Positions 1 through 4,925 of a DNA stretch of 14,337 bases are shown piece after piece (the stretch's first letter is position 1; every line of letters starts with the position of its first letter). This stretch comes from a virus. Below the pieces are notes generated by a model, which did no database searches, was not told where the DNA came from, and saw nothing but the letters and a program-made list of their open reading frames with translations. Location of the stretch: UHGV virus genome UHGV-1848636. One strand, given 5' to 3'. A program made the translations under genes and the position numbers.

Positions 1-457
1 TTATTTTATCAGAAGTTAATTATCACTCTGTTGCTATTCAGTACATCCCTGCAGGGTAAAGTCTTGTTTCGCCGGATATGAAGATGAAATATTGTTAGAA
101 GACAGTAGCTACCGGTTCCTGTAACCGAACGTTCATTTCTCGTTATTTTTCATGCTGGCCGGGCGCAGGTGCTTTGCATCTGTTGCCAGCCTTCTCCTGC
201 AGGCTTCAATAACCCATGCCGAAAAATTACCCGATCCCTTACGTTCAAGGGCAATATGGATTTGATTAATCATCTGGTTTGGGAAGCTTTATTTTTTGAT
301 GACATTGTGTTTTTCCGTGTTCAGTGCTGCTGATTTGTATTGTCTTAAGATGTCTTTACGTTAAGTTGACACAGATCAATTAATGCATGACTTGGACAAA
401 ATTGATTATTTGTCGTGGTTTTATGGTGTACGTGGGATGTGTGATGGTATTTATATA

Positions 458-476
458 AATGATAATTATTATCATT
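458..476. repeat. Near-perfect 19-bp palindrome (AATGATAAT-t-ATTATCATT) just upstream of cosQ
   Basis: Read directly: 9-bp inverted arms around a single central base. From memory, lambda has a palindrome of the same form (TGATAAT-c-ATTATCA) at the equivalent place in its right end. Confidence 0.5.
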
Positions 477-480
477 TATT

Positions 481-487
481 GGGTCCT
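481..487 (+). promoter_or_regulatory. cosQ: Putative cosQ (packaging termination element), GGGTCCT
   Basis: GGGTCCT lies about 24 bp upstream of the cohesive-end sequence, matching the position and (from memory) the sequence of lambda cosQ. Exact boundaries are uncertain. Confidence 0.5.
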
Positions 488-510
488 TTCCGGCGATCCG
501 GCAGGCTACG

Positions 511-522
511 GGGCGGCGACCT
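511..522 (+). other. cosN: cosN: 12-nt cohesive-end sequence GGGCGGCGACCT where terminase nicks
   Basis: Exact match to the lambda 12-nt cohesive end, followed by CGCGGGTTTTCGCTATTTATGAAAATTTTCCGG as at the lambda left end. The nick sites flank this segment. Confidence 0.9.
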
Positions 523-553
523 CGCGGGTTTTCGCTATTTATGAAAATTTTCC

Positions 554-690
554 GGGGAAAATCATGTCGGTACTTCTCGAACATAACTATTTGTTTTTTC
601 TAATATCGAATCCGTAAAAGGTCCGACATGAAAACGCCTAAAAAAGTCATTTTCGGGCACTTTCATGTCGGCCCCTGTATTTATTGTGAG
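554..690 (+). promoter_or_regulatory. cosB: cosB-like terminase small-subunit binding region, not lambda-type, with three copies of TCATGTCGG (direct, inverted, direct)
   Basis: Motif TCATGTCGG at 562-570 (+), its reverse complement CCGACATGA at 623-631, and TCATGTCGG again at 663-671. An AT-rich spacer (about 575-620) sits between the first two copies. The region lies between cosN and the Nu1 start, as lambda R3-I1-R2-R1 does, but the sequence is not the lambda cosB I recall. Confidence 0.6.
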
Positions 691-698
691 ACTGTTTC

Positions 699-1218
699 AT
701 GAAGGTTAATAAAAAGAAACTTGCCGAAATTTTCAACGTGGATCCGCGAACGATTGAACGCTGGCAGTCTCAGGGACTCCCTTGTGTCTCCGGAGGTGGT
801 AAGGGCGTTGAATCTGTATTTGATACCGCCATGGCAATTCAGTGGTATGCGCAGAGGGAAGCTGATATCGAAAATGAAAAACTCCGTAAAGAGGTTGAGG
901 ATTACAGGGCTGCCAGTGAGGCAGATCTCCAGCCTGGGACTATTGAGTACGAACGCCATCGACTTACGCGTGCGCAGGCCGACGCACAGGAGCTGAAGAA
1001 TGCCAGAGACTCCGCAGAGGTGGTGGAAACCGCATTCTGTACTTTCGTGCTGTCACGGATCGCAGGTGAAATTGCCAGTATTCTTGACGGGATCCCTCTC
1101 TCGGTACAGCGGCGTTTTCCGGAACTGGAAAACCGACATGTTGATTTCCTGAAACGGGATATCATCAAAGCCATGAACAAAGCAGCCGCGCTGGATGAAC
1201 TGATACCGGGGTTGCTGA

Positions 1219-1244
<26 letters not shown>
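699..1244 (+). CDS. nu1: Terminase small subunit (Nu1), 181 aa; N-terminal winged-HTH DNA-binding domain diverged from lambda, C-terminal part lambda-like
   Basis: ATG at 699, 181 aa as in lambda Nu1, first gene after cos. Residues from about 70 onward ([58 protein letters not shown]...) match lambda Nu1 as I recall it; residues 1-70 are only partly similar. Confidence 0.93.

Positions 1245-4925
<3,681 letters not shown>

Follow-up and report, generated by a model that had tools for sequence, protein, structure and literature searches.

A palindrome beside cosQ in a lambdoid prophage is very probably a Fur-binding site equivalent to those of nohA and nohB

The DNA directly left of cosQ in a lambdoid prophage contains a perfect 25-bp palindrome (positions 455-479) that, judged from its sequence, is highly probably a Fur-binding site orthologous to the nohA and nohB sites of Escherichia coli K-12. 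Positions refer to the window, the whole 14,337-nt stretch of viral DNA that was analysed. Binding of Fur here is very likely because the window site is identical to the site in the K-12 prophage DLP12 (nohB/nohD) throughout the core (15/15) and at 18/19 positions over the centre +/-9, and the protein that would occupy the palindrome is most likely this host repressor and not terminase. Among lambdoid phages at large, the box is a frequent, position-constrained and dispensable neighbour of cosQ. The relevant features of the window are listed here.

133-273, minus strand: DUF3950 (YlcI/YnfO family) gene (PF13132, E = 8e-19), the nearest gene on the left, reading away from cos
455-479, no strand: perfect inverted repeat of 25 bp (12+1+12), arms ATAAATGATAAT and ATTATCATTTAT, central T at 467
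460-474, no strand: predicted core Fur box TGATAATTATTATCA, an exact instance of the 7-1-7 motif TGATAATNATTATCA
475-480, plus strand: T-rich 6-bp linker TTTATT between box and cosQ
481-487, plus strand: cosQ, GGGTCCT, the packaging-termination subsite, occurring once in the window
511-522, plus strand: cosN cohesive end GGGCGGCGACCT, occurring once in the window, 0 mismatches
540-554, plus strand: I2 (IHF) region of cos, from alignment to the annotated phage 21 record
560-676, plus strand: cosB of the phage-21 type, from alignment to the phage 21 record M81255
Parts of cosB: R3 at about 560-575, I1 at about 582-596, R2 at about 618-633 (inverted), R1 at about 661-676
CATGTCGG cores in cosB: 566-573, 624-631 (minus strand) and 665-672
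699-1244, plus strand: small terminase subunit gene, Nu1 family (PF07471, E = 7e-91), with its start codon 232 bp right of the box centre

The window corresponds to positions 20001-34337 of our locus L001, which was taken from the E. coli chromosome NZ_CP090611.1, with 1 mismatch in 14,337, and the host of the matching prophage is the pig isolate E. coli DCE7. The window belongs to a lambdoid prophage integrated in the chromosome; genes for holin, lysozyme and spanin lie left of cos, and those for terminase, portal, head and tail right of it. This confirms the view of the first-pass annotation that the window is not a virion end. Because the prophage is integrated, cos is internal, with 510 bp of right-end-type DNA ahead of cosN; this gene order is normal for a prophage and unremarkable. 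The Nu1-family gene is followed by annotated genes for the large terminase subunit and the portal protein.

In its cos, the prophage follows the standard lambda type, with a cosB of the phage-21 type. The cohesive end at 511-522, previously called as a 12/12 match, is indeed exact and unique in the window, and the GGGTCCT that had been noticed to its left is an exact cosQ, separated from cosN by a gap of 23 bp that is the same in lambda, 434, 21, phi80 and N15; the records of 434, phi80 and 21 annotate the GGGTCCT subsite as cosQ or R4. Further right lie three R repeats, an IHF site and terminase genes of the Nu1 and gpA families. From lambda cos, the window conserves cosQ, the 23-bp spacer, cosN and I2, and its R3-I1-R2-R1 layout matches that of the annotated phage 21 record. 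A scan of 400-720 found no IHF consensus.

Two further observations concern this module. The segment that sets packaging specificity (window 523-1244) combines phage 21 and lambda parts in a natural hybrid. Its cosB (R3-I1-R2-R1) resembles that of phage 21, and so do about the first 70 residues of the small terminase subunit; beyond about residue 78, in the stretch that makes contact with the large subunit of lambda type, the protein is almost the same as the lambda-type NohD (overall identity, 65% to phage 21 gp1 and 82% to NohD). In addition, the base before GGGTCCT is C in most lineages regardless of the upstream DNA (TGC, TAC, GTC, GGC or TTC), and a T-run usually precedes that base; the window (478-480) has T just before cosQ instead of the common C. 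Recognition of cosQ might therefore extend slightly to the left of the 7 bp.

The 19-bp palindrome at 458-476 described in the first-pass annotation is real, although it is only the inner part of the 25-bp perfect repeat. First-order Markov simulations produced arms of 12 nt in 1 of 300 runs for the whole window and in 1 of 3000 runs for the AT-rich segment 300-720. All 14 specified positions of the 7-1-7 motif TGATAATNATTATCA are matched at 460-474, the sole match in the window even with 3 mismatches allowed. Against the 19-bp classical Fur consensus GATAATGATAATCATTATC, the two best matches in the window both fall on the palindrome, one per strand, each at 15/19 (455-473, plus; 461-479, minus), and the next best match anywhere in the window outside the box reaches 12/19. 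Functional Fur sites usually match the classical consensus at about 11 or more of the 19 positions. We saw no second Fur box worth noting in the 40.7 kb of this prophage that was examined, nor within -150 to +250 of the other cos sites.

The lambda palindrome had been described as having the same form and a different sequence. The form is indeed the same, but the sequence is not different where it counts for the motif: the lambda core TGATAATCATTATCA and the window core TGATAATTATTATCA are identical at all 14 arm positions and differ at the central base alone (14/15 overall), and what distinguishes the two palindromes is the outer extension of the arms.

The same element lies at the same spot, 6 bp left of cosQ, in both cryptic prophages of K-12 that retain cos, Qin and DLP12, at 1,636,600 and 580,601 of NC_000913.3. 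Qin carries the lambda sequence GATGATAATCATTATCAC 6 bp left of GGGTCCT, and the DLP12 palindrome reads GATGATAATTATTATCAT. The palindrome of Qin is centred exactly 233 bp ahead of the nohA ATG, and Chen et al. (2007; PMC2189734) list a Fur site of 22.3 bits at -233 of nohA, gel-shifted as an oligonucleotide by 150 nM Fur; according to the same paper, Vassinova and Kozyrev had earlier recovered the fragment in an in vivo selection for Fur binding. The centre of the DLP12 palindrome, in the older coordinate system, coincides with the 'nohB' cluster of Chen et al. at 579824, which at 25.3 bits is the third strongest in the K-12 genome and for which that paper cites the Fur titration assay of Stojiljkovic et al. 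1994 (PMC2189734). A ChIP-seq summit at 1634625, which falls on the Qin palindrome, is given among Fur-bound, Fur-repressed operons by Myers et al. 2013 (PMC3688515), in an experiment whose antibody was anti-FNR and not anti-Fur, which makes the summit indirect evidence. Both nohA and nohB are given as Fur-repressed in the secondary literature; neither gene was matched in the main text of Beauchene 2015 or the supplements of Sastry 2019.

Compared with these K-12 sites, the window site agrees in position, with cosQ 6 bp to its right and a Nu1-type gene about 232-233 bp downstream, and its core is identical to that of DLP12 and differs from that of Qin at the free central base only (14/15). It differs in that its arms are 5 bp longer and in that it stands in an apparently complete prophage with a phage-21-type cosB, whereas the K-12 sites stand in cryptic remnants. 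The Fur literature searched calls the K-12 sites 'nohA/nohB promoter' sites and leaves cos unmentioned; searches for 'Fur box' with lambdoid and for Fur with lambda host factors returned nothing on cos, and no link between the nohA/nohB Fur sites and cos was found in the Fur or packaging literature searched. A Fur box near cos is largely known already from K-12, through sites on record since 1994-2007. Their connection to cos may be under-appreciated, which would make the present result a small addition, without defining a novel type of element. The nohA and nohB/nohD sites, long carried as two 'odd' entries in the K-12 Fur regulon, would then simply represent the Fur box of a lambda-type cos module.

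We scanned IMG/VR viral contigs for the pattern cosQ-N23-cosN, which gives a sample unbiased for the palindrome because the search pattern omits it. The collection comprised 122 lambdoid cos sites with 82 distinct sequences, a count that includes the window and two cos sites from a scan of genome contigs, and was divided by unrelated further-upstream DNA into 30 clusters, one of which (L186) looks like a chance match, leaving about 29 lineages. The Fur motif (at most 3 mismatches) was present in 19 of these about 29 lineages, ending 3-7 bp left of cosQ with a mode of 6, and each of the named phages lambda, 434, 21, phi80 and N15 has it at 5-6 bp from cosQ. The upstream gene, which reads rightward, has its stop codon within the box in N15 and ends a few bp short of it in phi80. 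Perfect motif matches in the 1.15 Mb of cos contigs were essentially all cos-linked. The genome-contig scan used cosQ-N21-CG-cosN and returned 120 matches, almost all of them chance occurrences in high-GC genomes; the only real cos sites, from Citrobacter (L144) and Kluyvera (L183), both have the box. A Fur box of the cos module would accordingly be shared by lambda, 434, 21, phi80, N15 and most of the lambdoid prophages surveyed.

Conservation was concentrated in the arms. Within the lambda-type family, 11/14 arm positions are invariant and the rest show 1-2 variants, with the central base (C, T or A), the linker and the upstream flank all variable. Linkers in the other lineages measure 3-7 bp and are T-rich, positions +8 to +10 from the box centre being T in 83-91%. 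Covariation across lambdoid right ends, which the first-pass annotation had proposed as a check, did not appear when the arms were compared: among arm pairs of 52 distinct sites from 19 lineages, 308 were at consensus, 55 had one-sided changes and 1 was compensatory (the 52 sites were pre-selected at no more than 3 mismatches, which inflates the consensus count of 308 and leaves the 55:1 contrast unaffected). Half-sites are therefore kept toward the Fur consensus and not toward mutual complementarity, the pattern of a dimeric protein site and not of a hairpin or cruciform.

About ten clusters have a cos without the box. Five are ordinary phages with both terminase genes downstream, and boxless sites also occur in the records of isolated phages, namely IdasGreatGrand, 4A7 (and 1W) and Enterobacter phage MStein-2023a, in all of which cosQ-cosN is present and unrelated DNA runs right up to cosQ. 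Two further boxless clusters are PICI satellites of the EcCICFT073 type, which are packaged by lambda and phi80 (PMC6739421). In one, the gene after cos encodes a helix-turn-helix protein of 144 residues, as reported for RppA; in the other, cos is present as two inverted copies resembling cos1/cos2. The cos of these satellites has a near-identical cosQ and cosN at the same spacing (PMC6739421, PMC9026076) and differs from that of the window in lacking the Fur box; in one copy a genuine terminator hairpin sits directly left of cosQ (-14.1 kcal/mol, z -2.9), and the next gene is rppA and not of the Nu1 type. As boxless cos sites occur in isolated phages and PICIs, the palindrome does not behave as a required cos subsite. 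Of the role first proposed for it, the non-chance origin and the idea of protein binding held up; a structural or packaging role did not, given the lack of covariation and the boxless isolated phages and PICIs.

Some details of the satellite loci were recorded in passing. Inverted double cosQ-cosN sites about 560-770 bp apart, as in L012 (4162-4199, plus; 4720-4757, minus) and also in L043 and L045, match cos1/cos2 of the PICI EcCICFT073, and neither copy has a Fur box. A PICI-like locus (L005, 563-2987, minus strand) encodes, a short way upstream of cos, proteins homologous to major capsid protein E (PF03864) and decoration protein D (PF02924) of lambda; there, cosQ directly adjoins the terminator hairpin, and the gene after cos codes for an RppA-like helix-turn-helix protein of 144 residues.

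What Fur would do at this position is less clear than its binding. Our tentative preference, a possibility that we would not put higher, is that Fur represses or blocks rightward transcription toward cos and the terminase genes. In an iron-replete lysogen, a Fe2+-Fur dimer, or possibly two, would occupy the box directly left of the internal cosQ, as the near-identity (18/19) to the DLP12 site suggests, and the bound protein would repress or road-block rightward transcription that is independent of Q, the late antiterminator, and would otherwise enter cos and the terminase genes. Such a block could be useful to the lysogen because terminase can cut the prophage's own cos. The guess of an effect on rightward transcription derives from two points: the box follows cos and the small terminase gene whatever lies to the left, and nohA/nohB are listed as Fur-repressed in the secondary literature. 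The box would on this account be an iron-responsive accessory of the cos module and not a packaging signal. A simple consensus test found no sigma-70 promoter on either strand of 1-760, so there is no evident promoter for Fur to occlude. A purely transcriptional role, moreover, does not explain why the box stays 3-7 bp from cosQ; inheritance of cos as one small module could account for that proximity.

This constrained proximity is one argument for the rival idea, close to what the first-pass annotation suggested, that the palindrome is a packaging element, which, alone or bound by Fur or terminase, helps cosQ and cosN to be recognized at the end of packaging, either by slowing the translocating motor ahead of cosQ, like a speed bump, or through its structure, as a cruciform. 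Lambda DNA is packaged from the Nu1 end to the R end, so the motor would meet the box immediately ahead of cosQ, and the box keeps a distance of 3-7 bp (mode 6) from cosQ irrespective of the DNA beyond it; cosQ mutations are, reportedly from work of the Feiss laboratory, suppressed by slower packaging. We nevertheless regard this reading as unlikely. IdasGreatGrand, 4A7/1W and MStein-2023a are viable with cosQ-cosN and without the box, and the PICI cos sites that lambda and phi80 package have none either; the ratio of 1 compensatory to 55 one-sided changes indicates no selection for a cruciform; the linker varies in length by 4 bp, which excludes a fixed helical phasing with cosQ; and the unrelated cos regions of HK97 and P2 have no Fur box. 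Because three isolated phages and the PICI satellites do without it, the box is not needed for packaging and is probably no part of the packaging signal. Similarly doubtful is control in the other direction, in which box-bound Fur would control, as at an operator, the DUF3950 gene (ylcI/ynfO type), whose start lies 182 bp further left, as in divergent Fur-regulated promoters. At lambda-type right ends that gene is the nearest one and reads away from cos, in the window as do ynfO in Qin and ylcI in DLP12, and its promoter must sit between the gene start and cos, but the scan of 1-760 found no minus-strand promoter consensus, N15 and phi80 keep the box without a leftward gene (their rightward gene, gp59 or its homolog, stops close to the box or, in N15, inside it), and in 19 lineages the box tracks cosQ and not the upstream gene.

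Two further readings were weighed. An RNA element, in which the palindrome as a hairpin followed by U residues would form an intrinsic terminator before cos, is very improbable. The window RNA folds to a marginal -8.8 kcal/mol (z -2.1) and is followed by UUUAUU, and a GC-rich terminator hairpin occupies exactly the same position in a PICI and one other lineage (-14.1 kcal/mol, z -2.9). The stem of the window is, however, nearly pure A-U, the corresponding sequences of lambda, 21 and N15 fold no better than shuffles (z -0.6, +0.7 and -0.45), a terminator scan of 1-760 was empty, and the 1 compensatory against 55 one-sided changes amounts to no pattern of compensation; the palindrome thus shows neither the stable GC hairpin with a U tract nor the compensatory changes of an intrinsic terminator. 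The last reading holds that an AT-rich palindrome binds Fur by chance and hitch-hikes with cos without any function for the phage. Its dispensability in several phages and satellites and the inheritance of cos as a small module would fit, but the arms are far better conserved than the central base, the linker and the upstream flank, both in the lambda family and across the 19 lineages, and the sites are among the strongest Fur sites of the K-12 genome, making an absence of function improbable, if less so than a terminator.

A Fur site, with repression of rightward transcription as its tentative role, leaves room for one bolder but unlikely proposal, that Fur is an unrecognised host factor of lambda-type cos, its dimer 3-7 bp before cosQ modulating events there. 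We know of no role of Fur in packaging. If the proposal were true, Fur might pause the incoming packaging motor and so improve recognition of cosQ and cosN or, alternatively, gate cos cleavage and late read-through by iron status, and the box would be a fourth, optional cos subsite that is absent from the packaging literature and annotated records searched.

The nearest analogy for a host factor that could assist cos is the pair of IHF sites, I1 and I2, likewise sites for a host protein within cos that are conserved among lambdoid phages. These are located to the right of cosN, and their role in initiation has been demonstrated. The Fur box is absent from some working cos sites, and it is not among the cos subsites given in the records and literature searched. 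Fur boxes are also found at lambdoid-phage accessory genes, stx1 being one case. The sitABCD operon on lambda phages of the infant gut is another, with a Fur box before accessory genes (PMC6969025). Boxes of the sitABCD type likewise let host Fur tie a function borne by a lambdoid phage to iron status, but they overlap the promoter of the cargo gene, whereas the box of the window has no evident promoter and is tied to cos.

Identification of the palindrome as a probable Fur site would explain it by a known protein and remove the hint of an unknown packaging structure. It would also mean that cos fragments with the last ~60 bp of the lambda right end carry a top-ranked Fur site, and multicopy vectors with such fragments could titrate Fur. 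Titration of Fur by replicating phage DNA was itself considered as a role and rejected on the numbers involved, one site per genome in a few hundred genomes being small against several thousand Fur molecules per cell.

Directly left of window position 1 (L001 19674-20000), between its lysis genes and its DUF3950 gene, the matching prophage encodes a 'TonB family protein' of 108 residues. This is an iron-transport-related cargo gene, and a strong Fur box lies about 450 bp away, on its downstream side; no good Fur box was seen in front of it. A conserved stretch, GGTGGAAGAAAC(C/T/A)GGA, lies 3' of the lysis genes and resembles a recombination junction (L001 19480-19525; L008; L249 1420-1445). 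In some phages it is about 12 bp from the Fur box, and in others about 55 bp of different DNA, without a box, lead from it to cosQ; in this prophage the stretch and the box are separated by about 950 bp of inserted cargo, which comprises the TonB-like and DUF3950 genes.

Finally, several mechanically called open reading frames span cosN, in the window at 345-584 (minus), 383-544 (plus) and 459-617 (plus) and in L249 at 1359-1637, and several deposited phage records, for example that of IdasGreatGrand, annotate a 'hypothetical protein' over cos. These are probably annotation artefacts, as virion DNA would split them at cosN.
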